This document shows positions 30,243 through 64,000 of a stretch of DNA of 64,000 nt, in pieces. A program made the translations under genes and the position numbers. The notes beneath the pieces were generated by a model. The model searched no databases. It saw only the letters and a list, made by a program, of their open reading frames with translations, and was not told where the DNA came from. Source of the DNA: a virus (Duplodnaviria; Heunggongvirae; Uroviricota; Caudoviricetes); the IMG/VR virus record IMGVR_UViG_3300001528_000174, positions 1 to 64,000 of that record, one strand, 5' to 3'. How positions within the stretch are numbered: position 1 is the first letter of the stretch; the number at the start of each line of letters is the position of its first letter.

Positions 30243-30551
30243 ATGACGAAAGAACAACTAATACAAAGTATTGATGAACTTCCTGATTAGTATAATATAG
30301 GTTTATAGGTTATTGGAAATGTTATTCATATAACTTTAACTAAAAAGGTAGATGAATTTGAAGAATATTGTAATAAATTAGATGATGATATATTCAGTAA
30401 TGCTTGTTCAATATTTGGAATTATTTCGGATATATCTTTAGAAGAATTTTCTTCTAATTTAAATAATCCAAATAATAAAAAATATAAGCAAGAGTTTAAA
30501 CAAATAGTAAATTTTTTGAATGGATTTAACGAAACTAAAAAAGATTAGTAA
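30243..30551 (+). CDS. First TAG-recoded gene of the late region. Hypothetical protein of ~102 aa with 3 in-frame TAG codons.
   Basis: Hand translation from ATG 30243 reads MTKEQLIQSIDELPD(TAG)YNIGL(TAG)VIGNVIHITLTKK...NGFNETKKD(TAG) and ends at TAA. Confidence 0.4.
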
Positions 30552-30732
30552 TATTGCTCCTAATCTTACTATTAAGCAATTAGTAGAAATTATGGATATA
30601 AGTAATAACTCTTATATAACTATTATTGATAGTGCTATAAATGGTAAAATAAATAATAGAATTATAGACAATAGAACTACATCAACTGGTCTTGGTGATA
30701 TAGTATATGGAACTACTAGTGTAACAAAATAA
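30520..30732 (+). CDS. Hypothetical small protein
   Basis: 70-aa track ORF with no TAG, ending TAA. Confidence 0.35.
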   Translation: MDLTKLKKISNIAPNLTIKQLVEIMDISNNSYITIIDSAINGKINNRIIDNRTTSTGLGDIVYGTTSVTK

Positions 30733-30743
30733 TAGATAATTAT

Positions 30744-31034
30744 TCTCTTATGGTGTAATGGTTAGCACAGAAGACTCTTAAAATAGGAGCTTTATATGGC
30801 GACATATATTGGAACTCTTCCCCTAATAAACCGAAGCCTCGAATATAGTAATATATTCTTTGGTGAGGGCTTACTAAATTAACTTAATGTTATAAATGGC
30901 GTAGAGACTATATAGGGAAGCATCTCTAGCAGATGAAGAAATAGTCCAGACTACAACATCCTATTAGGATGGCTTATGTAAAAGTAAGAGTAGTATGAAA
31001 TCTTTTAGTCTGGGTTCGAATCCTAGTGGGAGAA
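30744..31034 (+). tRNA. Split tRNA. Read as an amber-suppressor tRNA with anticodon CUA, interrupted in the anticodon loop by a ~219-nt intron.
   Basis: 5' half at 30744-30778: acceptor tctctta, D arm gtgtaatggttagcac, anticodon-stem strand gaaga, then ctct. 3' half at 30998-31034: aaa, then tcttt which pairs with gaaga, then T arm ctggg-ttcgaat-cctag, then tgggaga which pairs with tctctta (two G-U pairs), then discriminator a. Joining ctct|aaa gives the loop cuCUAaa. Confidence 0.4.
30779..30997 (+). other. Candidate self-splicing (group I-like) intron within the tRNA anticodon loop
   Basis: A ~219-nt insertion between loop positions 35 and 36. The 5' exon ends in U and the intron ends in G (tatg|aaa), as group I splicing requires. 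Internal P-elements have not been verified. Confidence 0.3.
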
Positions 31035-31035
31035 C

Positions 31036-31317
31036 ATGATAGCAGCAATTTATGAATTAAATGGTAAGGTTTTAAAAACAACTAATCTTACTAAGAAATT
31101 AAAACGATTAAAATCAGAACCTAAGATTCTATTTCAATTAGAGAATGGAACAGAAGCTGATTTAGACCAATGGATTAAAGACAACCAAAATATAAAATCT
31201 AATTCAGAAGAAGATATTGAAATTAAAAAGTATCATTATAGAAATCCAATTACAGGATATACAATAACTTCTATATATGATAATCTAGATGTTAATGGTT
31301 ATATAAAAATTGATTAA
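31036..31317 (+). CDS. Hypothetical protein
   Basis: 93-aa track ORF ending TAA. Confidence 0.4.
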   Translation: MIAAIYELNGKVLKTTNLTKKLKRLKSEPKILFQLENGTEADLDQWIKDNQNIKSNSEEDIEIKKYHYRNPITGYTITSIYDNLDVNGYIKID

Positions 31318-31475
31318 TGACTAACAAAGAATTAAAAGACTTAAAGTCTAAAATGAACAAAGTACTTAATGAAGTACAGTAGATTATTGATACTATAGGA
31401 GATAATGATTTACAAGATAATCAATTAACTCTTAATTTTTGTGATAAGTTAAATGAATTATCTGTTGCTTATTAA
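31317..31475 (+). CDS. Hypothetical small protein with 1 in-frame TAG
   Basis: Reads MTNKELKDLKSKMNKVLNEVQ(TAG)IIDTIGDNDLQDNQLTLNFCDKLNELSVAY. The ATG overlaps the upstream stop as taATG. Confidence 0.3.
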
Positions 31476-31512
31476 TAAATATTTGGGGATGAGTATTTAT
31501 TAATTTAAAAAA

Positions 31513-31550
31513 AATAGCCGAGGCTTCTCATTTGAGAAACTTCGGCTATT
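31513..31550. terminator. Bidirectional rho-independent terminator between convergent plus and minus gene blocks
   Basis: Long near-perfect hairpin atagccgag-gcttctca-tt-tgagaaac-ttcggctat. It is flanked by aaaaaaaa upstream (a T-run for minus-strand transcripts) and tgtggtttt downstream. Confidence 0.5.
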
Positions 31551-31556
31551 GTGGTT

Positions 31557-32300
31557 TTAATGTCCCAACTCCTACAAAAACTATCTAAAATGGTAAGAAC
31601 TAGTCTGAGGATAATACTCCCGATTATTCATATTGTTATATATATCTATAAAACCTCCAATAGTACCTGTACTTACTCCTATAGGAGTGCCATATTTATT
31701 CCACTAATACTAAATATTACCAACTTTTCTTTGTGGTATTACAGAAAAATCAGTTTGCCAAGTATGTGTACGACTTTCCTAAAGTTTTTTATTCCATTTT
31801 CTATACTAAGGATATTTATAATAAGCTTTAGTATAATCATACTGAGGCTTAGAAGAATAGACATAATTACTAATAAGAGGACTATATTCTGTAGTCTATT
31901 TTACTTTAGGTCTAAATCCACTATACTTTACATATTTACCCCATCTCATAGGAGCCGTATGAGGGTTAATAACTTGATATTCAGGGAATCCCATGCTTGT
32001 ATAATCTCTAAAATCAAATCTAGGATTTGAACCTATTTCTAGCATATTAATAGCTCCTGACTAAGATCCTGAAGAGTAACTTTTTAATCCGATAGTAGGC
32101 TACTACAAAGCACCAAAATATCTACTTTCATTATATGCCTCTCCATAATATCCATTTATATTTAATTTTTTAGCTAACTCTGTAGTCTATTTGGTACCTT
32201 CTTCTATAGATAAAGTGCCCTAAGCTACTTTATTATTAATATCATCAAATAACTAATAATTTGGGTCTGTTCTCTATAATCTATTTTTTATAGAATTTAC
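31557..32300 (-). CDS. TAG-recoded minus-strand gene I, a virion-type protein. Its start is unresolved and it may be fused to gene H by a frameshift.
   Basis: Open frame with many in-frame TAGs ending at TAA (plus-strand tta at 31557-31559): ...GFPEYQVINPHTAPMRWGKYVKYSGFRPKVK(TAG)TTEYSPLISNYVYSSKPQYDYTKAYYKYP.... The frame stays open for ~100 codons upstream of the first ATG and overlaps the end of gene H. Confidence 0.3.
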
Positions 32301-34388
32301 ATATTCCTAAAAAGAATTAATACCAACTCTATTATTTAATATTGCCGTAACATCTCCTCCTAAACCTCCTCTTGAAGAATTTAATAACTAATTACCTCCA
32401 ATTCCTGAAGCCTATCCATTAAATGGAGCTACTACGGAACGAAGAGCATTATTTTCTGTAGTAATATCCCATTTTGGAGTAAATTTAGAAAACCAGAATG
32501 CTGTTCTTATTCCCATATTATCTGCTATTAAATTCTAATTAACTATAGATTCTACAGCATCGTCACTATAGCTCTATGGAATACCCCATATAGTTCTAGC
32601 TTCTTGAATTTCCTAAGGAGTTAACTTTAGTCTAGCCCAATCATTAGTAACAGCATTAGTATTCATTTTCTAGATTCTATTAGTTAGCCAAGGACTACTA
32701 AACATTTGAGCTTGTCTACCTACTTGCTTAGATTTAAAACCATTATAGTTATCCATAGCTACCATTAAATCATATATTCTAGGATGTTTCTATAATTGGG
32801 TATATAATTCTTCAGCTTTTATAGGTAGAGCCTACTCTGTAGTATTAAATACTTGACCTTTCTATATAGCTGTGTTACCTAGTGATTCCCACTATTTCTA
32901 TAACTATTTATATTTCTATGGGTATAGTCTAGAATAATAATTATGAGCTAACTATCCTGTAGCATATCCTTTAGCATCTTCTCCAATAGTCTAAACATCG
33001 ATTACATGATTCCCATCAGAGTTAAATACTTTGTTATTACCTTCTAAGGACTATTTAAAACCATTAGATGGTCCATATTGAGATCCTTCTTTACCAATAC
33101 TTTTCTAAACTGCTCCTAATCTAGATTTAGTTGTTAATAACTCTAAGTCGTGAGGTACTCCGTTAATAATTCCAGAACCATATAATCTTGTAGAACCTCC
33201 AACAAGGGCACTTCCATTTAAAGTAGTTTCTAAGTCTTTTAAATATTGACCTAATTCAGGAGAGCCTGAAGTAACTTTACCAGTAGTATAATTTATCTTA
33301 GGGCGAATAGTCACTTCCTAACCATTTAAATTAATAGTTGCATTAGGGTCTTTACGTGTCTTTAAATTTGCAGCATAGTTAGCATGCCACTATTTTCCAC
33401 TTTCAGCAGTAGCTTCCCAATCAATTTTAGGATTATGAGTTCTAATATATTTTATATCTCTATATTTAGATAGAGCATTAGGATAAGTCGCCTCTAAATC
33501 AGACATTTTATTTTGTAGCTACTATTCATAAGCTTCTTTAGATGCAGATCTAGCCTCACCTATACTACTCCAAGTATATTTTTTATTAATTATATCAGAT
33601 AATCTTTTAGCGGGTTTCCAAGATTTATAAATTCTATTAATACCATAAGGAGCAAAAGTAAAAGCGGTATTTAATCCAGCACTTGCATAATTATTATCTT
33701 TTACATCGTGATGTATATCAGCAAGATTCTAACCTATAAACATAGCATTACCTATACCTCTAGCAGTAGCACTAGGTAACATACTGAGTACCATAGAAGT
33801 ACCAGTATTTATATCATGTATAGATTTTAATAATCTATAACCTAAGGGAGCATCCCACTAAGAATTATTTATAAGGTTTCCATTATTATCTTTTAAATAT
33901 TGCCCGGTTTCTAAATCTTTTAAAAATGGATCTTCAGGATTATAATCTATAGATCTATCAGAGTGTACAGTGGGAGATACTTTATAAGTACTTCTATACT
34001 CATTTTCAGCTTTATCCCTAGCTTTTTTAGCTAATACTTTACTCCCAGAACTTTTTGAAGACTCTAACTCAGCATCAGCACGTGCTTTATTAATATTTAG
34101 TTTATGTGCATTACTAAAACCCTAGTTTACTTCCTATTTATTAGTTCCTCCAGTATTTATTAATCTATTTTTTCTATACGTAGGGGCATAAAATGTTTTT
34201 ACTCTAGTACTATTATTCTATTCAATATGCTGAGGCACCACTTCTACCTAAGGTCTCTATAATTTCTAAGTACTCTTCTAAAGACCCTAATATAAAGATT
34301 TTACTGAAGCACCATTATCTTTGGAATTAAATAAATTTATTCCTCCCCAAGACTATTTATAATTATTATCTTTTATCTATACAGCCAT
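32297..34388 (-). CDS. TAG-recoded minus-strand gene H, a large (~696 aa) hypothetical virion protein
   Basis: Hand translation from the ATG (plus-strand cat at 34386-34388) through the track fragment 33105..33314 to TAA. It contains more than 30 in-frame TAGs and sequence such as ...NAMFIGQNLADIHHDVKDNNYASAGLNTAFTFAPYGINRIYKSW.... Confidence 0.4.
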
Positions 34389-34513
34389 GGTGTTCTTACT
34401 ATTACTGGAGTTCCTAATTTATCTAACATTTTTAATCCTAATATAGCTTTATTGTCTAAGTCAAATGAACGCCATTTCTTTTTATATTCATCAGGATTAA
34501 ACTTCCAAATATC

Positions 34514-35509
34514 TTATGCTCTATATACTTTTCTACCATTAGATGTTCCTTCCTAGATCAAATGTCCAGCAGCATCAACTCCTCTATCTCCAAAGTCTAA
34601 ATTATTATTAGCACTTTTCCAAGAAGTCTTATTAGTTACATTAGTTGCTTTCTATAAAGGTTTCTTAGTAAAGAAATCTAAAGTTTCAGTATTCTCATAT
34701 ACTGGAACATCTTTATAAGGATATACTTTTCTTATATAATTTTCATGTGGACCATAATCTACATTTACCTTTCTTACTCCATAGGAAGGGTTGATAGTTT
34801 TATTATATAAATAAGCATCAATCATATCATTACCTTTAGCTGCTTTCTAAAATCCAGTGTATGCTTCAGGAGCATAGGTATTATAACCTACACCTGTTGA
34901 TACGTAAGATAATACTCCAGCATGTTTCTTTGGAGTAGCCTTATGCATATTATATAATATATCTTCTATAGGATTTGCATCATTAGAAGTTCTCATAGCT
35001 ACTTCTATACTTCGTTTTAAAGGAGCTTTCATGGAATATCCAACCATAGGTATCATAAATAAATAATTACTAGCTTTAGTCGGATTTTTAGAAACATCAA
35101 TAGCTCCTTTAGTATAATCATAAACTGCTTGAGCCATAGGAGCTAAAGCATACCCTATACCTGAATTAGCTAATGCTTTTATTGGACTAGTATTATTATT
35201 CCAACTATCTACTTCTCTAGCATAAGCTCCTTTAATAGGATGGTTTCTATTCTTATTACTATAATTATATAATTTAGAATTGGTGTGTCCTCCCTATTGT
35301 ATAGTTCCTCTATTATCTACAAATATATCTTGTATTCCATTTACTGTTCTTATAGGAATTACTCTCTACTAAAACTTAGCTCCTATATAAGGGGATTTAA
35401 ATCTAGACTATCTTTGTCTAGAATAATATTCCATATCTATAGCTGCCTATTTATTTTGAGTATTATTATTTACTCCTTTATTTTGTTTACTTTCATCTAC
35501 CCTTGGCAT
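34514..35509 (-). CDS. TAG-recoded minus-strand gene G, a ~331-aa hypothetical protein
   Basis: Runs from ATG (MPRVDESKQNKG...) through the track fragment 34847..35137 in frame to TAA. It has about 10 in-frame TAGs. Confidence 0.4.
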
Positions 35510-35675
35510 ATTTTAAATTTTATTTTTCCAAATACTAGTTACACTATCTATACCTAATAATCCCATGCAGCAATAAAGCACAGTATCAACCATTTCAGGA
35601 GCTTGTATCTAATTAATAGAGCAATATATAAGTATAGCTAAACTAATTACCCATCCAAGTATCCCGCATACTCTT

Positions 35676-35861
35676 TTACTACTTATTCCTGTATGGGCTG
35701 TTATTAAGTTTATTAAGAATTTCTTCATTGCCCATTAAAAAGAATTTAAACAATAATCCTACAAAAGAATCAGGTGCTAAATTAGCCAATTCTTCTATAG
35801 GAATATCTGGATGAGTATCTACATATTCAGATACTTCCTCAATAGTTTTTAATTTATCCAT
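35676..35861 (-). CDS. Small hypothetical protein F (MDKLKTIEEVSEYVDTHPDIPIEELANLAPDSFVGLLFKFFLMGNEEILNKLNNSPYRNK)
   Basis: Part of track ORF 35679..35942, ending TAG then TAA. An overlapping alternative-frame small TM ORF (MKKFLINLITAHTGISSKRVCGILGWVISLAILIY...) at ~35505-35723 is also possible. Confidence 0.25.
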
Positions 35862-36079
35862 TATATAAAAATTAATATCGTGATAATTTGTAATATCTAT
35901 CCAATTAGTCCTCCTATCATAGTAGCAGCTATATCTAACCAATCAAATTTGTTTCCATATTGTTTATCCTTAAACTCCATTCCAAATGCACATCCTAATA
36001 CAGCCAGTATAGTAAATATTAATCCAATAGGAATAGCACATAATAAATGTTTTGGACGATTACTTTCTTTTAGCCACAT
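35860..36079 (-). CDS. Holin-like small membrane protein with two TM helices and 1 in-frame TAG
   Basis: Reads MWLKESNRPKHLLCAIPIGLIFTILAVLGCAFGMEF...WLDIAATMIGGLIG(TAG)ILQIITILIFI then TAA. Confidence 0.35.
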
Positions 36080-36155
36080 AGTTACTAACTCTTAATAAAT
36101 TTTTCCACAGCTATTGATCTCTTTCATTTACAAAATCAAAGAACTTTTGTAATTC

Positions 36156-36660
36156 ATTAATCTTCTCTGTCAGAATATACGTATCCATTATTATTTTTAT
36201 TAAGTTTTAAATTAAATCCAGAACCTCTAGTTTTAGTAACATATAAGGTAGGTAATATATTGGCTCCATCATAAACTATTTTAGTTCCTCCATTATTATA
36301 ATCATAATCAGAACCTAAATAATCCATGATATCATCTAATGACTTACCACTATTAGGATTTATATACTAATCTTTACTTAAATGATATATCTAATTATTA
36401 TTACTCCAAGATTTATTACCTAACCAAGGATAAGTAGGATGAGACTTAGTTTTATAAGTTCCTGATTTTCCTTCATCAGGAAAATGCCCAGTAGGAATAT
36501 AGTTATTCCAATTATGTGCTAAGATATTATTTAATTGTAACCAAGCAACAATAGGTTGGTCATTATAATATTTTCTATAGTCATACGAATCCTTAGATAA
36601 ATCTTGATTATTCCAAGCTCTAGATAATTGCTTACTCCAAGTATTATATAAAGATGGCAT
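36156..36660 (-). CDS. TAG-recoded gene D, a hypothetical protein
   Basis: Track fragment 36391..36660 (MPSLYNTWSKQLSRAWNNQ...) continues through TAG for ~75 more codons to TAA at ~36156. Confidence 0.35.
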
Positions 36661-37088
36661 TATGGTAAAATTGCGTTAATAATAGGATATTTAGCTTGTA
36701 TTCCATAGTATTTATCTATTAACCAACTAATAGGGGAAGTTACGTAAAAATCAGGTAACCTAGTATCCATTACCATTTTTCTAGCCTCCTAAGGATTTTT
36801 ATTCCAACCATTTTTATCTCTAAATGCTCTATAACTTGATTGAGCTTCTTCTCTATTATAATCTTTAATAAATTTACTATAAGCTAAAGCTCCTCTTGCT
36901 ATAGGTAATCCATAAGCCACTGCCTTAACATAAGCTTTTCCAACAGGGTCAGTATTACTTAAAGGCTTCTTTAAATCATTATCTCTTACTCTAGCATACT
37001 AAGGATATTTTTTATCTATGGCTTGCTACATCTATTGTGGAGTCCATACAGCTTTACCTTTTTGATATTTAGGAACCAGTTTAAGCAT
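36660..37088 (-). CDS. TAG-recoded gene C, a ~142-aa hypothetical protein
   Basis: Reads MLKLVPKYQKGKAVWTPQ(TAG)M(TAG)QAIDKKYP(TAG)YARVRDND... then TAA. The stop overlaps the ATG of D as taATG. Confidence 0.35.
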
Positions 37089-37734
37089 TTCTAAATTTAT
37101 TTATATATTTAACAATAGTAGTACCATTAGCATCAGAGCCTCCAACTTTTCCATATTTATAATAGTTTTTAGCCCATTTTGGATTTAGCCATGATGCTGC
37201 TATAGCTTCTCCAGTAGCTGCTATGCCATTACTTCTTAAGAATCTTGCATTATCATCATAAAACTATGATGCAGCTAATACTTGAGCATCAACATTGTTT
37301 TTAAACTATTCTCTAGATAAATTAGAATATTTACTTCTAGTACTATCTATAAACTAAAACCATCCAGCAGCTGAACTATTTTTTGATTGAGCCCTTGAAT
37401 TATATCCAGATTCCAAATGAGCTAGCTTCATTAAAGTAATTTTCTTATCACCAGTGATACCATATTTATCTAAGGTCTATTCAAGTATCTATTTATTACC
37501 TCCAGTATTATGATTTAATGTTAAAGATTCATTATTTGTTTCCATAGATGTTTTACTATTAGAGAAATATCCATCTAGATTTAAACCATTTGTATGAAAA
37601 TCTCCCGTATTTAATTCAGGAAACAGTTCATACTATTTAAGAGAGTAGTCTAAATCAATTCCTTTACTTTTTAATACTTCTGTAGCAGGTTTATCAGGAA
37701 TATCTAAAGCCTCATATTTAAAATATTCACTCAT
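37081..37734 (-). CDS. TAG-recoded gene B, a ~217-aa hypothetical protein
   Basis: Reads MSEYFKYEALDIPDKPATEVLKSKGIDLDYSLK(TAG)YELFPELNTGDFHTNG...AASWLNPKWAKNYYKYGKVGGSDANGTTIVKYINKFRNA then TAA. Its ATG overlaps the HNH stop as ATGA. Confidence 0.4.
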
Positions 37735-37976
37735 AATTTTATTAAGCCATTATGTATTTTAGCATGGCAATTCTTACAAACACAAACTGTTTGAGATAAT
37801 TCTTTAATAAATAAATCTGTAGGTATATGACTTACAGCTTGAGATATATTAAATAATTTTTCTCCAATGTGATGAAATTCTAAACAACATTTAGTACTCT
37901 CTCCACATATTATACATTGTGTTTTATGCTCATTTAAAATCTTTTTATTTTCTTTATAATACTTATTCTTTTTCAT
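37731..37976 (-). CDS. HNH homing-endonuclease-like protein
   Basis: 81 aa intact with no TAG. Motifs are C-x2-C (QCIICGE), EFHHI, and a C-x2-C-H-x3-H tail (CKNCHAKIH). Confidence 0.7.
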   Translation of the reverse strand: MKKNKYYKENKKILNEHKTQCIICGESTKCCLEFHHIGEKLFNISQAVSHIPTDLFIKELSQTVCVCKNCHAKIHNGLIKL

Positions 37977-52239: not shown

Positions 52240-54293
52240 TGCAAACATTAAGTCAATTAAAAATTGGTGATATTATATATGATTTAGCTGCTAAATTTGA
52301 TGCAAATGATAATAATATCCAAGATACTTATTCTACAAAAGAATATGTATCATAGAAAATATCTGAACTAGTAGGATCAGCACCTGAAACTTTAGATACT
52401 TTAAATGAATTAGCAGAAGCTTTAGGAAAAGATCCTAATTTTGCAACTACTATAGCCACTCAATTAGGAAATAAAGTAGATAAAGTAGAAGGTAAATAGT
52501 TATCTACAGAAGATTTTACAACTGCTTTGAAAGTATTATTGGAAAGTCTTCCAGAGCAAATAACTAACAAGTATAATAAACCTTCAGACGGTATTCCTAA
52601 AATAGATTTATCAAAAGAAGTTTAGAACTCTTTAAATAAAGCAGATAGTGCTATACAAGATATTTCTAGTAAATTAGATACTTCTATTTATGAAAGTGAT
52701 AAAGAGACTTTTGCTTTAAAAACAGAAATACCCACTACATTACCAGCTAGTGATGTTAGTACTTGGGCTAAAGCTTCTACGAAACCTGTATATACTGCTG
52801 AAGAAATTGGTTTAGATAAAGTGAATAATACCTCCGATATAGATAAACCAATATCAACAGCTACTTAGACAGCGTTAAATTTAAAAGTAGATAAAGTAGA
52901 AGGTAAATAGTTATCTACTAACGATTACTCTAATGAAGAAAAAGAAAAAGTACAGTAGTTAGGAGCAAGTGTACAATCATTAACTTAGAGTGTAGCTGAT
53001 ATTCAAGGTATAGAAGAATTATTATCTTACGGTATTAGTTTTGATTCTACAGTAGCTGACCCTAAATGTACTAGAGTCGGTAATCCTCTACTACATAAAT
53101 CTTTACCTATACAATCTTAGTACAAAGGTTGTATTGTTAAAGATGGAGTTTTACAATATTATTTGGACCCAAATGATTGGTCTAAAAAAGCGAACTCTGG
53201 AGTTATTGCTGGAAATAATGGCACAGAAGCAGGTTCAGGAGTAACTGTTGGTAACTCTTCTTAGGAGGATGCTGTTTTGGATGGTACAGATGGAGAAGTA
53301 TGTGTGGAAACTCCAGAATTTTATTTAAAATGTACTACTGTAGGGAATATTACTACTATTCGCGAATCATTACAATAGATAGATGCTGATTATAAGAAAA
53401 TCCCATCTATGTTTATAGACGCTTATAGAGGTACTGTAAATGACTCTAAATTACGCTCTGTAGTAAATACTAGTGCAGAATTTAGGGGAGGTGCTAATAA
53501 CTCAAGTTATGATTCTTATTTAGAATCCGACCCATTTAAATGTTTACTTGGAAAGCCTAGAACCAATATCACAAGAGCAAATTTCAGAACTTATGCTAGA
53601 AATATTGGTAAGGAATTATTATCTTATGATCAATACAAAGCAATATTCTATTGGAATTATATAATTGAGTATGCTAATTTTAATTCTTAGTTAGATTATA
53701 ATGCCAATTTAACTTCTGAAGGCTATCATCAAGGGGGTCTTGGAGCAGGACTTACGACATGGGATTGGTCAAGTTGGAGTACTTATAATGGTAATAATCC
53801 TATTACTCCATGTGGTTACGGTAATAATATTGGTAATTTTACAGGCATTAAAACTATCACAGCAGGCAATAAGACTTTCTCAATGCCTCGTTGGAGAGGA
53901 TTTGATAATCCTTTTGGTGATATTTGGACAAATGTTGATGGATGTGTTTTGAAGATTCCAAATATGTATATAATATTAAATAAAGATGATTATACAGACA
54001 ATTTAGATAATATTAAGTACAGTCGTATGTATTCTAACTTACCTACCTCAGAAGGTTATATAAAATCATTTTAGTTAGGTGAATATGCAGATATGGTTCC
54101 TAAAACTGTCGGCGGTAACGCTTCTATATATATGTGTGATTATTATTGGCAAAATTCTAACTTAAATACACTGCTGGTGGGGGGCAGCGTGGATAATGGT
54201 TCTAGTGCGGGTCTCACCTACTTCAACGGCGACCTTTCCGTCGGCAGCACTTACGCCACTGTCGGCGCGCGCGGCGTATGTTTGAAGAAGTAA
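52239..54293 (+). CDS. Tail fibre / receptor-binding protein of 684 aa that is the DGR target gene. It carries a C-terminal C-type-lectin-fold variable region and is TAG-recoded.
   Basis: The length 2055 nt equals 685 codons. Track fragments 53409.., 53883.. and 54093..54293 all fall in frame 0 and are linked by TAG codons. The N-terminus has a tail-fibre motif SAPETLDTLNELAEALGKDPNFATT and repeats KVDKVEGK(TAG)LSTEDFT / LSTNDYS. The C-terminus ...GGSVDNGSSAGLTYFNGDLSVGSTYATVGARGVCLKK is encoded by VR1. Confidence 0.7.
54180..54275 (+). repeat. DGR variable repeat VR1 (96 nt), inside the 3' end of the target gene
   Basis: Aligns ungapped with TR 54486-54581. Every one of the ~22 mismatches is at a TR adenine (A to G/T/C in VR), the signature of DGR adenine mutagenesis. 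Confidence 0.8.
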
Positions 54294-54485
54294 TATAATA
54301 CATAGATACAATATAAATTTTAAAATATAGTTGCTGAATATAGTTGTAATTCGGCGGCGTCAGATAAAATACACTGGGTAAAGCTACCAGGGGAAGCGTA
54401 AATTTTGATACTACAGAATCCCAAAGCCTTGGTATAAATAACTGATATAATAGATTTTCCGCTATAGAGAAAAACTAGGCTAGTA

Positions 54486-54581
54486 GGAGGCAACGTGAAT
54501 AATGGTTCTAATGCAGGTCTCACCAACTTCAACAGCAACAATTCCGTCAGCAACACTAACACCAATGTCAGCGCACGCAGC
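54486..54581 (+). repeat. DGR template repeat (TR)
   Basis: The sequence ggaggcaacgtgaataatggttctaatgcaggtctcaccaacttcaacagcaacaattccgtcagcaacactaacaccaatgtcagcgcacgcagc is rich in AAC codons. It is non-coding in its context and sits 165 bp upstream of the RT. Confidence 0.8.
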
Positions 54582-54746
54582 TTATTATTATAGTTAAAAA
54601 TATTATAGTCCGTTTTATGAGAATATTGTGCTATTTATACCATGCCTCTTGGCAAAAAATAACGTGGATTATAAGTCTTCATATCTGGCTTAGTAGTTAC
54701 GGCGAAAAATCAGAATTTATAATAATACTAATTTAAAATAAGAAAA

Positions 54747-56006
54747 ATGAAACGGAAAGGTGGCTTAATAAAAGAAATTAGCAGTTTTTCTAATGTAAGA
54801 TTAGCTGATAATTATGCAAGACAAAATACTAAAAGTAAACATGAAGTATATGTGCACGACAGTAACCAAGATGAAGAAAATATTATGTTATCAGAGAGTT
54901 TAAAAAATGGAACTTATAAAACCTCTAAATATAAAACTTTCTCTATTTTTGAACCTAAAGAAAGATTAATATTTAAATTACCTTATTATCCCGATAGGAT
55001 AGCACATCATTCCATAATGAATGTGCTAAAACCTATTTGGATAAAAACTTTTATACATCAAACTTATTCTAGTATAGAGGGAAGAGGTATTCATATGTTA
55101 AAACATGAATTATATAAAGTATTAAAAGAACACCCTGAAGAAACTACATATTGTTTAAAAATGGATGTGCATAAGTTTTACCCATCTTTAAATCATGAAA
55201 TATTAAAAACTTAGGTACGAAAGAAAATAAAAGATCCAAAAACATTAGTACTATTAGATGAAATAATAAATTCTACAGATTCTCTAACTCCTGGAGTTGG
55301 AGTTCCTATAGGAAATTATTTATCTCAATATTTTGCTAATGTATATTTATCTGAGTTTGACCATATTATGAAAGAAAAATGGAAATGTAAATTTTATTTT
55401 CGATATGCTGATGATATGGTAGTATTATCTAGTAGTAAGGAGTGGTTACATAATATTTTAGATAAAATAAAAAATTATTTTGAAGTTAACTTAAAACTCG
55501 AATTAAAACCTAATTATCAGATATTTCCAGTGGAATCTAGAGGTATAGATTTTGTTGGATATGTATTTAGACATGATTATGTACTACTTAGAAAATCAAT
55601 TAAAAAGAAACTTAATAAATTAGTATCTAAATATTAGAAAAAGAAAATTGATAAAGAGACTTTTAAAAAATCTTTAATGTCTTATAAAGGATGGCTATAG
55701 CATTGTGATGCTATACATTTAGCTAATTCTATATATAATAAAACTAAAATAAGAGTCTTTATATGGAATGGAAAAAAAGTAAATATATCTTCTTTCTATA
55801 ATAAATATATATGGGTAATTCGATTAACTAGACATAAGAAATTCTTTGAAATATGTTTTAAATATAAAGGTCAAAAATATATAACTAAATCTCAAAATTG
55901 GTTATTATATAACAAGATAAAATTTAGAAAACGACCATTTTATTTTAAATATGACAGAAATAAATTCAAACTCACCTCTCTAGAAGATTTAGAGATTGGG
56001 AAATAA
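54747..56006 (+). CDS. DGR reverse transcriptase of ~419 aa, itself containing 3 in-frame TAG codons
   Basis: Track fragments 54747..55214 and 55368..55637 share a frame. Motifs are FEPKERLIFKLPYYPDRIAHH (RT domain 1-2), GVPIGNYLSQYFANVYL, and the catalytic FRYADDMVVL (YxDD). A C-terminal extension SLMSYKGWL(TAG)HCD reaches TAA at 56004-56006. Confidence 0.85.
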
Positions 56007-56300
56007 TACTTATTATTATAATTATATAATTGAAGTAACTGAAATAATTACTTAGGAAAATGAAACTGTTCCTTTATATAGGTATATTCAGGTACATCTT
56101 AATGGGCAGCCTGAATATAAGCAAATAGTACAAGCAGTTTTAAGAGAATATATTAGTCAAAATGAAGAATTTGATTTAATAAATTCCTATAATAGTTATC
56201 AGAATAAATTGATAGATGATGAATCTGTTGTTACTAAGTATTTAAATTATTTAAAATTAGTTTAGGAAATTAAAACTAATATTAAAAAAGACATAAACAA

Positions 56301-56522
56301 ATGATATATCGAAACGGTAAATTAATTACAGAAGTTCATTAGAATCTTAAAGAATTTATCAATTAGGTATAGCAAATTGTTTAGAGAGATATTGGTGCAA
56401 TATATAAAGGTTCTTAGTTAGTCTGGGTAACTGTTTATAATGCTATTAAAAGTTGTTTTGGTAGTGGTACATGGTTACAAGATAAACCTTGGTTAGATAA
56501 TGACTTTTGGAAAAATAATTAA
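56301..56522 (+). CDS. Small hypothetical protein of ~73 aa with several in-frame TAGs
   Basis: Reads MIYRNGKLITEVH(TAG)NLKEFIN(TAG)V(TAG)QIV(TAG)RDIGAIYKGS(TAG)LVWVTVYNAIKSCFGSGTWLQDKPWLDNDFWKNN. Confidence 0.25.
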
Positions 56523-56572
56523 TACAAATGGCAATTTAGAATTTAAATAAACAAGATTAGCTAGATTTAACA

Positions 56573-59500
56573 ATGAATTGGGATGGTACTACAGGTTAGT
56601 AGGTAGAAGATTTAATATCAAGACATTTACCTGCTAATATGGAGTATGATGGTACTGACAATATACTTACTATTTCCAATAGCAATGGAGATACTATTGT
56701 CTCAGCAGAAGTAAGTGTTGCTCAACCTATATATACTCACTCAATTCAAATTGAAGGAATTTACTTTAATAATACTAGCTCTGAAAATTAGATAAATAAA
56801 GATTCAATACTTTGTAAACTAGGTACTAGGATATATCTTGGAGTTAGATATACCTACACTGCTACTAATCCGTTAACTAATAATACAACTCATGTCGGAA
56901 GTACCCAGAAGGTATTTATAAACATTGGAAATGGATATATTTAGTTAGAATCAGGTATTAAGTCCTCTCCTGATGTATAGTATATAGAAATTACAAACTT
57001 ATATACTAAAGTAACCTCTTCTAATGTATCTATACGTGTTACTGCTTCTGCTGATATAGAAGATAAAACAGTAACAGCTACAACTCCGAAGAAAGTATAG
57101 GTAATCAATCCTATATTAAGGTATTCAAATGATAGCTATATTGTTTCAGGTACAGCTAGTTTCCAAGTATAGGATGGGGGCGACGTATCTTATTTACTTT
57201 ACTATAAAATTAATGATTCAGTAGTTAAGAATCAAGATAACTTAACTTTAGCATTAACTGAATCTGGAGTAAATAAGATTGAAGCTTATGTAGAAGTAGC
57301 TAATAATGCTTCTATCAAGTCTTAGACTTTAAATGTGTAGGTAATAAATACTGGTGGTGTTACAACATTTGATAAAGTATTATATGCAATAAATGAAATT
57401 AGTGCTGATGTAAATAACTGGGAATTTAGTAAGCTATATAAATTATCTATATACTTCAAAGGGTAGTCTTAGGAGGAATCTACTATAATTACTAAACTTA
57501 CTGACACAGGTAACTCAGAATCATACCATTTAAATAAAACTAAGACAATAACTCTAACTGGAGATACTGGTGTAATTGAATAGGATATTAGTTACTTCTT
57601 AGGAATAACTGCATCCTAGAAAGATTTTAGTACAGTCTTAGTAGTAAATATAGATGGTGAAGATACAATTTCTTTTGATAATTCTACTATTATTAAAATC
57701 TTCAATGAAGGCTCATATAGTTATACTCCTAACTGTGCTTATTACTTTGATTAGTATTCTCCTGACAATTCTAATATTGTAACGAAAGATGTTATTGCCA
57801 AAACGATTTCTCCTGATGGATTAATTACTGATGATACTTTAACGGTATTTAGATTGTCTGCTGGAAATTACCCTAATAATATTATTAATTTAGATTTATC
57901 TAATTAGCTAACTACATAGGGATTTACTTTTGAATTAGATTTTAAATCCTATAATATTAGTGATGAATCTAAACCTTTATTAAAGTTAGGTAGATTCATA
58001 TTATATCCTACAGAACTTAATTGGCAGTATGGTAATGTAGATACTTCTTAGGTAGATACTACTGCTAAGAGTTCTATATTTTATGGAGATACTAGAACAC
58101 ATATTTTAATTGAAGTTGTTCCTAATTTTAAAATACCTAAGAGAGAGTTCCCAAAAGATACCATTTCATTGGTAGATAAGACTATAAATTTAGTAAGAGT
58201 ATTTATTAATGGTTGTATCGCCCGTGAGTATAAATATGATTACTTACAAGATTTTTAGTATAATGGATTTAACCTAGAAATTAATCCTGAATCTGCTGAC
58301 TTTGATATTTATGGAATTAGGGTATATAACAAAGCTTTAACATTAAAAGAAATACAAGATAATTATGTATCTACAATGTCTTCGGTCACTGAAAAATCTA
58401 AATTTTAGTAGTTAAATGATTTAGTAGCTACAGATTCCAATAATGATACTTACATATCTTATAATAAAGTTAAGTAGCTTTATAATACTTTAGTATATAT
58501 AATTCCTAATAGACCGAAAGAATTAACTAGATATGAATACCCTCATTAGTTCTCTTTGAAGAAAGGAGAAGTTCTAGAAGGTTGTACCGTATTTATTAAT
58601 TATGTAAATAGTATAGCAACTGATAGTTCTCATATCTTAACGGATGCTTAGATAAATCGTTGTTCTGGTAGATTTATTAATGCTAATGTAAGTGGTCAAG
58701 GAACTTCTGCAATGAAGTATTACTGGTATAATATTCAAATGAAGAAACCTAAGTTTACTTCGTAGGGATGTTATAATGAAGAACTTGATGATTATGTAGA
58801 ACCTACAGATGAAAATCCAAATAACTACTAGTACAATAGTAAATACTACTATATGCCAGAGGATGAAAATTGTACTATTGGTATAAATAAGTCATGTGGT
58901 AAGTTTAATTATGCTTCCTCTATGCAGTCTCATAAGATAGGAGCTGTTAAGGCTTTTCATGATTTGTGGAATGCTTGTGTTGATAAATCCGATTTTACAG
59001 AAGATGAAATAAAAGGAAGAAAAGCTTGTCTCGAAGATGTATTTATAGCATTCTATGTTAATTCAGATTTAGAGGATGTGTCTAACTATAAGTTATCTGA
59101 CTTAGCTTAGTTAGATGATTCTAAAATAATGTTTGCAGGATTCTAGACTTGGGGTTCAGCTAAGGGGGATAAGAATACATTTGGCTATTCCGATGAAACT
59201 CCTGGATATATCTTATTAGAAGGTGCTGAAAATAACGGTGAACTATGTAACTGGTTAGCTCCTTGGAGTCCTAATGTAGTGGAATTAAGTGGAGAAACTT
59301 GGAAAACCAAATAGTTAGAGGTAAGCTCTGATGGTTCTACAAAGTATTCTTTATCTGATTCATTTGATGTAGACTTTGGATTAAATGATGCTGATGAAAC
59401 AGGCAGCACAATGTCTACTGAAGGATAGAAAACTTTAAATAAATTTATAGAAGCATATAATTTTGCTTATATGCATACTATTAATTTATTGCCTTATAAA

Positions 59501-62500
59501 GAGACTTATTCATTGAATGATTCTCGTAATAGTCTTGACCCTAATAAGAAATATTATATTACAAGTATTAACTATTAGGATAACACATATTTTAAAGGCT
59601 CTCAATGGGATGTATTTAGATATGATACATATTCTAAATTATGGGTTCCTGCTGGTTTACCTGTTTTAAATGAAAATGGTACTTAGAAACTATCCTCTGT
59701 TAGAAGTGCTTATAATACTGATGTCTATGAGTATGAAACATTTAACTTAAAGACATTCCATCAATAGTTAGGAACTTCTGGTACTGAGAATATTAACACT
59801 TATATATCTGATTTAAAAACCGATTTTAAAAATAACTTTGGTAAATACTATCATGTAGATGATATAATTTATCATCAAGCTTATATTAGATTATTTGCGG
59901 GTACTGATAATAGAGCTAAGAATACTTACTTTAAATTATTTAATAAAGACTGTAAGATTTAGTTGCTACAAGATGACCTTGACACCATTTTAGCTACTGA
60001 TAACCGAGGTCTTTAGAATAAACCTTATTTCTTATTAGAACCTTCTCTAGAATCTGATAAAACATATCAATCAATGTGGGGCGGTGCTAGTGCATTCTTT
60101 GAGTTAATAGATATAGCCTATAAAGAAGAAATAGATGCTATGTTACTAAAAATGTTAACTCAAATGAAATTTACAGATGGCAGTAACACTTCTCTTGATT
60201 CTTGGATGACTAAGTATTTCTATTATGTACAAAATTATTATCCAGCTGTAACATTTAATTATGTAGCAAGATTAGCTTATGAAGCAGCATAGTTATTCTA
60301 TGACAATCGTTCAATAACTGGAAAAAACTGGACTAATAATGGACAAGACCCACTATCACAAGAACATGGAAGTTGTTTACCAAGTGAAATTGCTTTTATG
60401 CGGAAGCGTTTGACTATGTTTATTAGTTAGGCACGATTAGCACAATTTGGTAGAGAAGGTGTAGGTATACCACTTAAAGTATCGGAAAATTCTTCGGAGG
60501 ATGCTCAACATTATGATGTTAATATTACTCCATATTAGTATTTATACTTGGGCTATTTAGTTGGTAGTGTAAGTAACTTATATACTAATAAGAGAATTGC
60601 TGCTGGAGAAACTTTAAAAGTAACTGTTGATATGCCAAATGGTACACCATCGTACTATGTAACAGGAGATGAATATATTTCTAAGTTTGATAATTTTAGT
60701 CAGGTATTATTTAATAAAGGAACTTATTCACTTACTACTCCAAAATTATTAGAGTTTTCTGCCAATACAGGTACAGATGAATTACCTTTATTCTAGCCAC
60801 CATATTTAACCCTTGATTGCAAGGTTTTAGAGAAGTTAGATTTAACTAATGTACGTTCTTTAACTACTATAAATCTTGACTCAGACCATACTCCTAAATT
60901 AAAGGAAGTTATTTTAACAGGAACTAATATATCTAATGTTACTTTACCTATTGGTAGTAGATTAACTAAGATACATTATCCAGCTGCTTTAACTAATTTA
61001 GTTATTTCTAATAATGAAGGACTTGAAGAAGTTAAGTTTGAAGGATTAAATAATTTAGAGACTGTTGATATTAACTGTGCTAAAGTTGGACAATTTGATA
61101 TTACAAACTTCTGTGAATAGTTAATATCTTGTCCTAGTCTTAAGTCTGTTACTTTGAGAAATCTAAATAATAAGATTTCACTAGAAGCATTAGAGAAACT
61201 TATATTATTGCAAGCAAAACTTACAGGTACATTAACTATTGCTAATTCAGGTAACTAGTTAGAAGGTATTAGTTATACTGATAAGATTAATTTAGTTAAT
61301 TTATATGGAAATATAGACTCTGATTCTAATAGTTTATACATTAAATATAAAGAGACTATTGCTTATAGTATTTCTTGTGAAACTGAAATATCTATCTATG
61401 GTCAAGGATATTCAGGAAATCCATTTGGTTTAAGCCTTGATGGTAACAATATAGCTTTAATCACAGAAGGTGGTAAAGTAATTCCCGATATTACTTATAG
61501 ATTTAATACAGACGTATCTGATGTAGCTACTATAAATAACAGAACAGGTGTTATTACTTTGAAACAAGCATCTTCTTCTAAAACTACTACAGCTACAATC
61601 ACTGTAAAATTAAAGAATGGAAATACTTTAACTTCTAAGACTATTAATATTTATTTTGCTTGGAAAGCTCCAGAAATAGGAAACTTTGTATATGCAGATG
61701 GTACTTATTCAAGTGCATATATGACCAGTAAGACATTAATGGGATTGATATTTGCTATAGATAAGACTACGGATAACTCAGGTACTGCTTATATCGTGGG
61801 TAAAGAATATCTAGACCCTCAATATGTAGGTTATTCAAATGAAGCAAATCAAGAGGCTTCAGATGCTAGAAAAGACTTATATAATGTTAAATTCTGGCTA
61901 AATAATCAAGTTTCAGGTTTAGGAGATACATATTACAATAGTAAAAATGTAACAAGTAACATGGACTCTGATGCTAGTTAGGCTATTACATTAACTTCAT
62001 TTAGTTAGAAGAGTCCTTCTACATTTACAGGTAAGGCTGATACTAAAGCGTATGTGGATAATGTAAACAATACCTTACTGCCTCTTATAGTAAAAACGTA
62101 CCCATCCTTAATTAATGCTTCAGGTGATACTTATAGTATAACTTCTAGATAGAACTTAGATGCATTATTAAATAGTATACCTAATATAGCTAGTTAGAGT
62201 TTAGAGTAGATGTAGTGTTTACTATATCCATACTTCTATGAGACTTACTTATATGAACCTACAGTGACTGATTCTGAAAGGAATACAGAAGTTTTTTAGA
62301 CATATTTTAGTAAAGGTAACTGGTATGTCCCATCTTATTAGGAGCTAGCTACTTTGATTTATTATAGAGGCTATAGTGCAGCTGGAGATAATTTCTCTAC
62401 TGGCGATATTCCATTGAAATCTAACATATCAGATTCTATAACCAAAGGTTCAGGCGATTTAAAGAATCCTATTTTCTCTACTGCTTATAAAAATGCAGGT

Positions 62501-62761
62501 AATTATATGCCAGCAGTATGGAATACCTTAGCAGATTCTAATAACTTATGTACTAATGTAGATATTAGTAGTCATAACTATACTTATTAGGAGATAAGCA
62601 ATTATTCTTCTAGTGGTTATTTATATAGTTATCAATGGGTGCCGGGAACTAATGACGGAAATAACATTGGAATGGGTACTTCAGCAGCTGCGTATAATGG
62701 TTGGAGATTATTAAAACATAGACCTTTACCATGTGTACAATTTAAATATCAATAGAAATAA
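56573..62761 (+). CDS. Giant tail / virion protein of ~2062 aa with ~60 in-frame TAG codons and a leucine-rich-repeat region
   Basis: Track fragments 58853.., 60074.., 60548.., 61559.. and 62354.. are all in frame 2. TAG positions 57323, 58256 and 61118 were verified in frame. There is an LRR-like stretch near 60.8-61.2 kb (LDLTNVRSLTTINLDSDHTPKLKEVILTGTNISNVTLPIGSRLTKIHYPAALTNLVISNNEGLEEVKFEGLNNLETVDINCAKVGQFDITNF). Ends TAA at 62759-62761. Confidence 0.55.
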
Positions 62762-63266
62762 TGGAATAGTTAAATATTAATATAGTCAAAAATTCTTCAT
62801 ATACATTAGATGAAATATTTAATATATATAAAGAAGCATTTCCAACTAATGAATAGTGGGCTGAAATACTTAAAATGAGAGAAGGAGTTTTAAATTTCTT
62901 CTCTCTAAAAGATATTTTTAAAAAAGCCATAAGTCATTATGATAAGTCTATCTATGTTAATTCTTTCTATTACTAGAATAAATAGTACTGGTTAGACAAA
63001 GATACTAGAATTGGACTTTTTAGATTGATAGATAGTGGGGCTACATAGATTACTCTTTAGTTAAATGACAACTATTTGATTATTAACTCTGACAAGTTAA
63101 AAGAATTTCTTAACTAGTTAGAAATATATGCTGGTAAATGTTTTGCAATTACTGCCGAGCATTTACAAAATATAAAACAATTAGGTACTACTGAAGAATT
63201 ACTTAACTATGACTACACTGCTAAATATCCAAATAAGGTTATTTTAAATGAAAATTAGTGTTAAAA
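62761..63266 (+). CDS. TAG-recoded hypothetical protein of ~167 aa
   Basis: Reads ME(TAG)LNINIVKNSSYTLDEIFNIYKEAFPTNE(TAG)WAEILKMREGV.... The ATG overlaps the upstream stop as taATG. Confidence 0.35.
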
Positions 63267-63843
63267 AAGATATTGGGCTAGGAGTCAAAGATTCTTAGCC
63301 CAATTCTGTTTCTATACGTGTTCAGCTACCGAAAGAACCCTCAACTATTAAACCTAAAATAACTATTCCGGTAATAAAAAAAGAAGAAAAAATATTGGAT
63401 AAAGAAATTATTCAATTACCTAAAATAGTTGAACCTATTAAACAAACTTACGGAATAATTCATAATGAGCAGCCTGTTATTAAATAGGAACCTTCTAAAG
63501 AGCTAAATAAAGACTCTATCCTGGATAAAGTAGAAACAGGATTTGGTGATGAAAATACATTACATAAAGAGTGTCCAAAACCTAAATTTCATTAGCACCT
63601 ATGTAAGGAGAATTTTTTTAGTGAGTTTAAAACAGAAATAGAAAAGTAGTTAGCTAGAGATAATCTAGGAGTATATAGTAAACTTCAAATAGACTAGTTT
63701 TTAAAAGATTTAACTAATATAGATACTTCATCATTTATTACCAAAGATGACTTTGAAGCAGCTATATAGGATTTAGATTTTGTTAAATCTTCTTTAAAAG
63801 CTAATATAGATTATAATATACCAGAAAATTTATTTAAATTATG
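63248..63843 (+). CDS. TAG-recoded hypothetical protein of ~198 aa
   Basis: Reads MKISVKKDIGLGVKDS(TAG)PNSVSIRVQLPKEPSTIKPKITIPVIKKEEKILDKEII... and ends TGA. Confidence 0.35.
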
Positions 63844-64000
63844 AGTACTCAAATAAAGAGATTATATCAAAATAGTAAAGAGTTTGTACCTATAACGTTA
63901 GCAGAAGCAGTAGTAGTTAATACTACTAATATACCAGGTTTGCAGTCTTTAGGAATTACTACTTTAGATAAAGTATTAAGAACTACACTGGGAATAGTAG
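63841..64000 (+). CDS. Hypothetical protein, 5' partial since it runs off the window end
   Basis: Reads MSTQIKRLYQNSKEFVPITLAEAVVVNTTNIPGLQSLGITTLDKVLRTTLGIV.... Confidence 0.3.
   Translation, partial: MSTQIKRLYQNSKEFVPITLAEAVVVNTTNIPGLQSLGITTLDKVLRTTLGIV

Follow-up and report, generated by a model that had tools for sequence, protein, structure and literature searches.

The window analyzed here, a stretch of 64,000 nucleotides (nt) corresponding to positions 1 to 64,000 of the IMG/VR record IMGVR_UViG_3300001528_000174 (Caudoviricetes), contains a suppressor tRNA gene with the anticodon CUA, tRNA(CUA), which is present and intact at 30744–31035 on the plus strand and carries within its anticodon an insert with the features of a group I intron. 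Our reading, to which we assign a probability of roughly 85%, is that the window derives from a crAss-like phage of ~180 kb that uses two genetic codes, and that the intron-split tRNA(CUA) supplies the decoding of TAG as glutamine (Gln) in the genes between 30 and 64 kb. Late-gene recoding of TAG to Gln is already well described in crAss-like phages, and the recoding of the window is ordinary for the group; the new part is the intron-split suppressor tRNA.

TAG is a sense codon between 30 and 64 kb

Coding coverage was measured with stop-to-stop open reading frames (ORFs) of at least 100 amino acids (aa), setting TAG or TGA alone to sense. For positions 30001–64000, coverage is 0.243 under the standard code and 0.919 with TAG as sense, whereas TGA as sense, at 0.27, brings no real gain; for positions 1–30000 the values are 0.614 under the standard code and 0.673 with TAG as sense. 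A reading made earlier from the sequence only (the sequence-only reading) had held that the long genes past 30.2 kb are broken by TAG only and had proposed comparing coding density under the two codes on either side of 30 kb; the densities are unequal, with nearly all of the rise in 30–64 kb, and TAG is indeed the one interrupting codon. In 30 mononucleotide shuffles of the 30–64 kb region TAG-sense coverage had a mean of 0.068 and a maximum of 0.118, and the longest TAG-sense ORF, which runs to 2080 codons in the real sequence, never exceeded 173.

When TAG is taken as sense, 28 ORFs emerge in the region, tightly packed on both strands and many of them overlapping by a few bases, and the recoding spans the minus-strand block at 31557–38866 as well as the plus-strand genes. 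The 28 ORFs comprise 10326 codons, with 277 TAG, 202 CAA and 39 CAG, such that TAG accounts for 53.5% of the presumed Gln codons. All 28 terminate in TAA (21) or TGA (7) and none in TAG, as the sequence-only reading had stated for the termini it inspected. In the recoded block Gln accounts for 2.3% of codons when TAG is left out and for 5.0% when it is counted, compared with 2.8% in the early genes. Since three quarters of the recoded region lie outside ORFs of at least 100 aa under the standard code, code-aware gene calling is essential. The observation that 30–64 kb is recoded from TAG to Gln is confirmed, and the recoding is limited to the structural block, in which the 277 TAGs lie, while TAG as sense barely alters coverage of 1–30 kb.

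The leftward block holds 38 standard-code ORFs (6345 codons), which terminate in TAA (24), TGA (11) and TAG (3); that none of them has an in-frame TAG follows by construction, as they were called under the standard code. The proposal that the leftward genes use the standard code stands, with the frequency of TAG stops revised from one in seven to 3 of 38. The three TAG-terminated ORFs are all on the minus strand (4184–4564, 19863–20315 and 20688–20984), and under suppression they would gain 20, 9 and 1 codons, respectively, before the next TAA or TGA.

Some genes inside the recoded block are free of TAG. The exonuclease gene at 39701–40618 has TAG at none of its 12 Gln codons (P = 1e-4, given the pooled TAG share of 53.5%), the ORF at 40894–41475 has it at none of 8 (P = 0.002 on the same basis), and the short ORFs 37731–37976 and 31036–31317 lack it as well. 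The TAG-free exonuclease, ORF 40894–41475 and the HNH-like ORF at 37731–37976 suggest that such genes are needed before suppression sets in, which complicates a simple early/late picture. Late expression of the recoded block is itself something that we infer solely from its gene content.

These distributions bear on the idea that there is no code switch, i.e., that TAG already means Gln in the host, whose code the phage merely follows. Recoded hosts have been considered in the earlier literature, as summarized in bioRxiv 10.1101/2021.08.26.457843. However, TAG as sense changes coverage from 0.614 to 0.673 in 1–30 kb as against 0.243 to 0.919 in 30–64 kb, and three leftward ORFs end in TAG while the same codon supplies 53.5% of Gln codons in the other block. 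Furthermore, conserved TAG-free genes lie inside the recoded block, the phage has its own tRNA(CUA), and standard-code hosts are predicted for such phages in published surveys, so that we regard a recoded host as very unlikely.

Relatives support glutamine at TAG

Two independent comparisons support the assignment of TAG to Gln that the sequence-only reading had favored. The first is with MT835539.1 (L001), an unannotated 54.9-kb human-gut phage scaffold that is collinear with 19.7–64 kb of the window at ~83% nucleotide identity, and to which 7763 codons were aligned codon by codon. Window TAG codons lie opposite TAG in 139 cases, CAA in 35 and CAG in 11, and opposite any other codon at most twice; TAG codons of MT835539.1 lie opposite CAA 60 times and CAG 10 times in the window. 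Hence, CAA or CAG is found for 46 of 61 changed TAG codons on the window side and for 70 of 96 on the MT835539.1 side, whereas exchange with the one-step neighbors of TAG (TAT, TAC, TTG, TCG, TGG, AAG and GAG) is rare. The dominance of CAA, which is two steps from TAG, over the one-step neighbors is the signature of synonymous change.

The second comparison is with MT835470.1, a standard-code relative of 117 kb that is fully open under that code, has a TerL 41% identical to that of the window and contains no tRNAs; as a tRNA-free genome, it gave no lead to a suppressor. Thirteen window proteins align with it (tblastn), and TerL and portal each do so in one high-scoring segment pair that extends across all their TAGs. 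In 80 TAG columns the relative has Q 17, E 12, K 11 and N 6 times, which makes Q the top residue and 5-fold enriched over its background of 4%. The ranking is the same in 94 CAA/CAG columns (Q 32, E 15, K 10, N 6), and gaps occur in 5 of the 80 TAG columns, near the rate for CAA/CAG columns. In agreement with these results, the glutamine-rich C-terminus of the portal protein, where TAG had been seen to alternate with CAA and CAG, was recovered as described. The alignment of TerL, portal and reverse transcriptase (RT) to homologs, which had been proposed as a check, was thus informative for the first two; for the RT, and likewise for the tail protein, comparison with crAss phage cr7_1 was uninformative, as conservation is poor at the TAG columns and the translation of cr7_1 has in-frame stops there.

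Could TAG instead stand for another residue (Tyr, Trp, Leu, Lys, Glu or pyrrolysine), or be skipped? ARAGORN labels any CUA anticodon 'Pyl', and many TAG columns lie opposite E, K or N at ~40% identity. The true CAA/CAG columns, however, show the same E/K/N pattern, the changed codons go to CAA/CAG (46/61 and 70/96) and not to one-step neighbors, and TAG columns are mostly opposite residues, with gaps in 5/80, which speaks against skipping. In addition, the tRNA resembles the phage tRNA-Gln in its U1–A72 pair and its D arm. Taken together, a meaning other than Gln appears highly improbable.

The same alignments address the possibility that the late region is decayed or misassembled and that its TAGs are real stops in pseudogenes. 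Nothing beyond the fragmented standard-code ORFs favors this, whereas the interruptions are of a single codon type, TAG-sense coverage is 92% versus 7% in shuffles, 139 TAGs are kept in place in a relative of 83% identity, and the same genes recur in many independent assemblies. The alignments with MT835539 and MT835470 and the shuffles effectively refute such decay.

A side observation concerns cr7_1 itself (L037, NC_055895.1, 3744–7045), in which the tail, RT and neighboring genes show in-frame stops when searched with the window proteins (tblastn). One of these stops falls on a window TAG column, and the annotated RT coding sequence seems to be shortened at its N-terminus, which suggests under-annotated recoding in this RefSeq Suoliviridae genome.

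A suppressor tRNA gene split in its anticodon

None of the 13 tRNAs that ARAGORN identifies in the window has the anticodon CUA, and Rfam adds a transfer-messenger RNA (tmRNA) and three odd tRNA-like genes. A CUA tRNA was missed in the window by ARAGORN in default mode, by its intron mode (0–120 and 0–300 nt) and by Rfam at the gathering threshold. The gene surfaced only via synteny with relatives, in which the neighborhood of homologs of ORF 23931–24443 was inspected; a protein-seeded IMG/VR search with this ORF returned no close relative. In five loci (L015, L016, L020, L022 and L023) ARAGORN finds a 74-nt tRNA(cta) that lies ~6.5 kb from the homolog of ORF 23931–24443 and on the opposite strand. 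In these relatives, the tRNA is located between homologs of window ORFs 30243–30551 and 31036–31317, and in all five it is one gene from the same 93-aa ORF and in the same orientation.

When the relatives' tRNA(CUA) was aligned with the window by BLAST, it matched in two pieces, one to 30781 and one from 30998, and the two halves of the tRNA are 219 nt apart. The split gene lies between the standard-code and the recoded block. Exon 1 (30744..30778) ends ...GAAGACUCU, after anticodon U35, and its side of the gene is 88–92% identical to the uninterrupted tRNA(CUA) and flanks of L015, L020 and L022 (BLAST). Exon 2 (30998..31035) starts with AAAUCUUUUAG and comprises A36 onward, the T arm, the acceptor strand, A73 and one further C; it is 89–95% identical to the relatives. 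Splicing of the two exons in silico yields a canonical 73-nt cloverleaf with anticodon CTA (ARAGORN) and the loop CU-CUA-AA, the predicted ligated junction being ...GAAGACUCU^AAAUCUUUU, or CUCU^AAAUC in RNA form. In the comparison with L030, the T stem shows a compensatory change (CUGGG/CCUAG versus CAGGG/CCUUG). The tRNA was evidently missed by ARAGORN and the Rfam tRNA model because the intron splits the anticodon, and for the same reason it was hidden from the sequence-only reading. The suggestion made there, that the phage switches on a suppressor late in infection, has thus gained a phage-borne tRNA(CUA) gene, which would presumably be expressed late.

For CAA and CAG the phage has an ordinary tRNA-Gln(UUG), encoded at 21825..21896 on the minus strand (ARAGORN), and the suppressor shares with it U1–A72, A73 and a near-identical D arm (UAUGGUGUAAUGGU(U)AGCAC). 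In E. coli, a weak 1–72 pair and U35 are identity elements for glutaminyl-tRNA synthetase (GlnRS), and CUA suppressors are readily charged with Gln. The U1–A72 pair, A73 and the tRNA-Gln-like D arm would fit charging of the suppressor with Gln. A promoter scan around the tRNA gave fewer sites than shuffles; it covered the sigma-70 type only and is silent on transcription of the unit.

The insert as a probable group I intron

The insert is 219 nt long, occupies 30779..30997 on the plus strand between U35 and A36, contains no ORF, starts with UAAAAUAGGAGC and ends with GUAGUAUG. Its boundaries are unambiguous, as 14 uninterrupted alleles, from five public-assembly loci and nine IMG/VR contigs, read ...GACTCT^AAATCTTT. 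P1 forms between the exon sequence CUCU and GGAG and places a U.G pair at the 5' splice site, and the final bases of the intron are ...UAUG; both features recur in the intron of L039, described below. Helices P1, P2, P3, P4–P6, P7, P8 and P9 can be drawn in canonical order, including a P2 with a GCGA loop, a P4/P5 with a GUAA loop, P7 as GACUA/UAGUC, and P9.0/P9/P9.1. The Rfam model Intron_gpI (RF00028) aligns the segments AGAGACUAUA and UGAAGAAAUAGUCC with high posterior probability.

The insert is polymorphic among relatives. A search of IMG/VR for exact matches to the last 27 bases of exon 1 found 13 contigs, of which nine are without an intron, one (L030) has a 223-nt homolog of the intron and three have an intron of 1003 nt. 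Each contig, including the 159-kb intron-bearing contig of L030, has one exon 1 match, and a second copy with that exon 1 sequence is therefore not present in them. The 1003-nt intron occurs at the same tRNA site in MT835539.1 as well; it carries a TAG-free ORF for an HNH endonuclease and ends in a GAUAGUC...G core, and Rfam recognizes no family in the MT835539 copy.

A further homolog was retrieved with an 18-nt intron-core pattern. In L039 (positions 437–750; from IMGVR_UViG_3300021400_001615, a contig of 160,883 nt), a homologous intron of 212 nt occupies the same anticodon position in a different tRNA(CUA), one with a long variable arm that measures 93 nt after in-silico splicing. Between the introns of the window and L039, the sequences of P2, P3, P5 and P9.0 differ and are fully complementary in each, and P7 is identical. 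A further match to the pattern, L038, was discarded as a chance hit with dissimilar surroundings. On its predicted architecture and its presence/absence polymorphism the insert is most probably a group I intron, and the predicted introns represent at least two lineages that target the CUCU^AAA loop of amber suppressors. As a separate observation, in L015 a GIY-YIG gene adjoins the tRNA.

A split tRNA gene could also be an inactivated pseudogene, in which case UAG would be read by a second suppressor, a host suppressor or a near-cognate tRNA-Gln. The analysis covered 64 of ~180 kb, host-encoded or undetectable suppressors have been considered possible (PMC7886860), and odd tRNA-like genes are present in the window. 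Those genes, however, have no consistent anticodon and no CUA, and each IMG/VR contig matches the exon 1 pattern a single time, with no second copy of that sequence. Both exons are intact, with a compensatory change in the T stem, and a complete predicted group I core is kept in the intron. Furthermore, the same arrangement recurs with at least two types of intron and in a second lineage of tRNA(CUA), as expected of tolerated mobile introns, while repeated death of the gene would be unexpected where over half of the late Gln codons are TAG. We therefore consider an inactivated gene unlikely and retain the functional split tRNA(CUA) as the source of TAG decoding.

A broader proposal is that the CUCU^AAA anticodon loop of phage amber-suppressor tRNAs is the specific target of a family of homing group I introns, represented here in two unrelated tRNA(CUA) bodies and joined at that site by a second, HNH-bearing intron. 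In that case such splits may explain a substantial share of undetected suppressors in recoded phages, and self-splicing may delay the switch from the standard code to TAG as Gln or act as its checkpoint; this is a tentative extension, which we think possible but would not bet on.

Proposed route to a second code

In the two-code model with the intron-split tRNA(CUA), the leftward block (1–29.9 kb) would be readable by unmodified host translation once transcribed, and in the virion, packaging, tail and cell-wall-degrading genes (30.2–64 kb) UAG would stand for Gln at over half of the Gln positions. The short plus-strand unit 30243–31317 between the blocks would supply the suppressor precursor. 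Its transcript would self-splice, with exon ligation restoring the C-U-A anticodon before decoding, and the tRNA would then be end-processed, receive the rest of its CCA end, of which the gene encodes no more than C74 after A73, and be charged with Gln, the host GlnRS being the most likely enzyme. The mature suppressor would compete with host release factor 1 (RF1) at UAG, and full-length late proteins would appear only after spliced suppressor accumulates. Completion of a 943-aa product (48 TAGs), the portal (37) and a 2077-aa protein (52) would need efficient suppression, and the code would act as a gate on virion production, as Borges et al. proposed. If splicing proceeds in this way, code switching is made dependent on an RNA-catalyzed step. 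Self-splicing in vivo, the identity of the charging enzyme, the timing and a regulatory role of the intron are points that we infer.

Several observations weigh against this model. The intron matches the Rfam model RF00028 weakly, with 17 bits (E = 0.056) where the gathering score is 50. Three TAGs already occur in the ORF that opens the unit of the tRNA, so that the unit is not cleanly standard-code. Release factor 2, an antagonist of RF1 and GlnRS were not found in the window, which leaves no candidate for overcoming RF1 competition; the Pfam scan behind this result covered 30 ORFs, 29 of them from the leftward block, and identified no release factor, aminoacyl-tRNA synthetase or peptidyl-tRNA hydrolase. 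Finally, ~116 kb of the genome lie outside the window and could hold a divergent suppressor, a release factor or code-change genes.

Affiliation and comparison with known systems

TerL homologs of 91–92% identity are found on public-assembly contigs of 175–185 kb, and the close relatives overall are on contigs of 175–188 kb. The recorded 803-aa product of the relatives' TerL is not obtained from their DNA under table 11; they are therefore recoded as well, and their genes had evidently been predicted with TAG as sense. Proteins identical to the AAA ATPase of the window and to ORF 23931–24443 are each encoded on a 180,499-nt contig from the Joint Genome Institute (JGI). On this indirect evidence the genome is roughly 180 kb, of which the window is about one third, and falls within the 145–192 kb of the Zeta group. 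TerL matches many Crassvirales TerL proteins at 25–28% identity over ~75% of its length, with E values down to 6e-42 (tblastn). Features of the Zeta type are also present, i.e., introns, homing-endonuclease traffic, a GxxxSQ-type RT in a diversity-generating retroelement (DGR), 13 tRNAs plus a tmRNA, and a G+C (GC) content of ~30%. On these features and the TerL homology the phage probably belongs to the Zeta crAss-like group. The amber-recoded Zeta genomes that have been tabulated have a GC content of 31–36%, and that of the window is slightly lower.

Amber and opal reassignment is well documented in the Zeta group, "mostly in late genes" (PMC7886860, PMC12386605), Gln at TAG has been proven by proteomics in two crAss-like phages (Peters et al. 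2022, PMC9523058), and a regulatory model of recoding has been put forward by Borges et al. (bioRxiv 10.1101/2021.08.26.457843). Like code 15 crAss-like phages, the window has TAG within the reading frames of its TerL, portal, tail and RT genes, an early block in the standard code and a phage tRNA(CUA); also shared are a genome of ~180 kb, tRNA blocks, homing endonucleases, a GxxxSQ RT (here GNYLSQ) and the rarity of TAG as terminator. The difference is that its suppressor is intron-split and so escapes both ARAGORN and the Rfam model for tRNA. A detectable suppressor tRNA is lacking from many phages recoded at TAG or TGA (PMC7886860, bioRxiv 10.1101/2021.08.26.457843, PMC12386605); Borges et al. 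found one in only 40% of TAG-recoded genomes (bioRxiv 10.1101/2021.08.26.457843). The causes offered are host-encoded suppressors, highly divergent or non-canonical phage tRNAs and incomplete sequences (PMC7886860, bioRxiv 10.1101/2021.08.26.457843, PMC12386605). An intron-split canonical suppressor is one concrete explanation for suppressors reported as "missing" in recoded phages. We found no description of a group I intron-split suppressor tRNA in the literature searched, which included few papers from subscription journals.

The arrangement is reminiscent of the 'code-change module' of TGA-recoded Jade phages, in which a suppressor tRNA, a tryptophanyl-tRNA synthetase (TrpRS) and RF1 are encoded upstream of the lysis genes (bioRxiv 10.1101/2021.08.26.457843). 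In both, the suppressor is positioned at a boundary and adjoins recoded genes; in contrast to the Jade module, the Pfam scan revealed neither a synthetase nor a release factor beside the suppressor or elsewhere in the window, and the first ORF of the unit already uses TAG.

The closest precedents for the intron itself are in cellular and organellar tRNAs. Group I introns are present in the anticodon loops of cyanobacterial and plastid tRNA-Leu(UAA) and of Azoarcus tRNA-Ile. Like the intron of the window, these bacterial and plastid introns are compact, without an ORF and ~200–250 nt long, are located inside the anticodon loop, have a U.G pair in P1 and a terminal G, and must be spliced out to give the anticodon. 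The intron described here differs in that its host is a phage nonsense-suppressor tRNA, that it is inserted between positions 35 and 36 and is polymorphic among close relatives, and that an unrelated HNH-bearing intron occurs at the same site.

Gene content of the window

The standard-code block extends over 1..29865 on the minus strand and encodes NAMPT, an SPFH/flotillin protein, an AAA ATPase, a LytTR protein and many unknown ORFs, together with two tRNA clusters and the tmRNA (Pfam, ARAGORN, Rfam). The first ORF with in-frame TAG, at 30243..30551 on the plus strand (102 aa, 3 TAGs), opens the short unit that includes the suppressor tRNA, and it has counterparts of 100–102 aa at the same position in L015, L020 and L022. 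The recoded minus-strand block (31557..38866) encodes the 943-aa protein with 48 TAGs, an SLT-type transglycosylase (PHROG and Pfam) and others; the HNH-like TAG-free ORF at 37731–37976 (minus strand, 81 aa) lies inside it.

The recoded structural block spans 39013..63844 on the plus strand and includes TerL, portal, tail proteins, the DGR target, the RT and the 2077-aa protein. The count of five TAGs given for 39013–39723 (plus strand) in the sequence-only reading is upheld, as is the reading of TerL through 42875–45307 (plus strand), which has 13 TAGs and a PHROG match of 5e-67. The portal gene is located at 45551–47722 (plus strand; 37 TAGs, PHROG 6e-48), and TerL and portal match their PHROG profiles end to end; a tail protein gives a PHROG match of 2e-91. 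A giant protein had been described as ~2062 aa with ~60 TAGs; it exists, at 56528–62761 (plus strand), and its size and TAG count are corrected to 2077 aa and 52.

The TAG-free genes of this block are grouped at 39701..41475 (plus strand), where a PD-(D/E)XK-type exonuclease (39701–40618; phrog_298, 1.8e-26) and the TAG-free 193-aa ORF (40894–41475) flank a 90-aa ORF with 1 TAG; the gene order across this segment is the same in the standard-code relative MT835470.1.

A complete DGR occupies 52239–56006 on the plus strand. Its target is a tail protein (52239–54293) with the variable repeat (VR) at the gene end (54164–54279), followed by the template repeat (TR; 54470–54585), for which 22 of 25 TR–VR mismatches are at TR adenines, and by the RT (54747–56006), which has a GNYLSQ motif and 3 in-frame TAGs. 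The segment at ~52.9–56.3 kb is absent from the close relative MT835539. Conversely, MT835539.1 has three insertions of ~1 kb that are absent from the window (at ~25.4–26.4, 30.4–31.5 and 31.9–33.1 kb), whose sites correspond to window positions 40.29, 43.59 and 44.02 kb and of which two lie in TerL; mobile introns, inteins or homing-endonuclease genes are the probable explanation.

Other RNA genes

The tmRNA is encoded at 16249–16632 on the minus strand, scores 54 bits with Rfam against a gathering score of 47, and has canonical GGGG...CCACCA ends. Its tag frame reads (G)RVNNSSVSYAVAA, then TAA, and ARAGORN identifies an ortholog in L011–L014 with the tag ARVINMTPAYQAAA followed by a stop. 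A connection between the tmRNA and ribosome stalling that results from UAG read-through is only speculation.

Two tRNA-like families are represented on the minus strand at 22720–22803 and 23234–23314 and have orthologs in MT835539, L015–L023, L029 and L035. In both, the acceptor, D and T arms are normal; the acceptor stem differs between orthologs by compensatory changes, and the T stem is conserved and has two U.U mismatches. Their 'anticodon loops' are 17–20 nt long, vary in sequence between lineages and present no consistent anticodon, and many copies are called 'tRNA-Stop(tta)' by ARAGORN. A third gene of this kind (22268–22389, minus strand) is 122 nt long, with an insert of ~48 nt replacing the anticodon arm. 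All three were considered as suppressors and rejected, as none has a loop with CUA, the loops are unconserved among orthologs, and ARAGORN gives conflicting calls, either Stop-tta or, with an 8-nt intron, Trp-cca. A mini-element at ~22530–22585 (minus strand) consists of an acceptor stem and T arm only (GGTTCGAATCC).

Finally, MT835539.1 encodes at c6082–6172 a 91-nt tRNA with a D arm like that of the neighboring phage tRNA-Ser, a long variable region and the anticodon CCA (Trp); if it were charged by seryl-tRNA synthetase (SerRS), Ser would be inserted at UGG.

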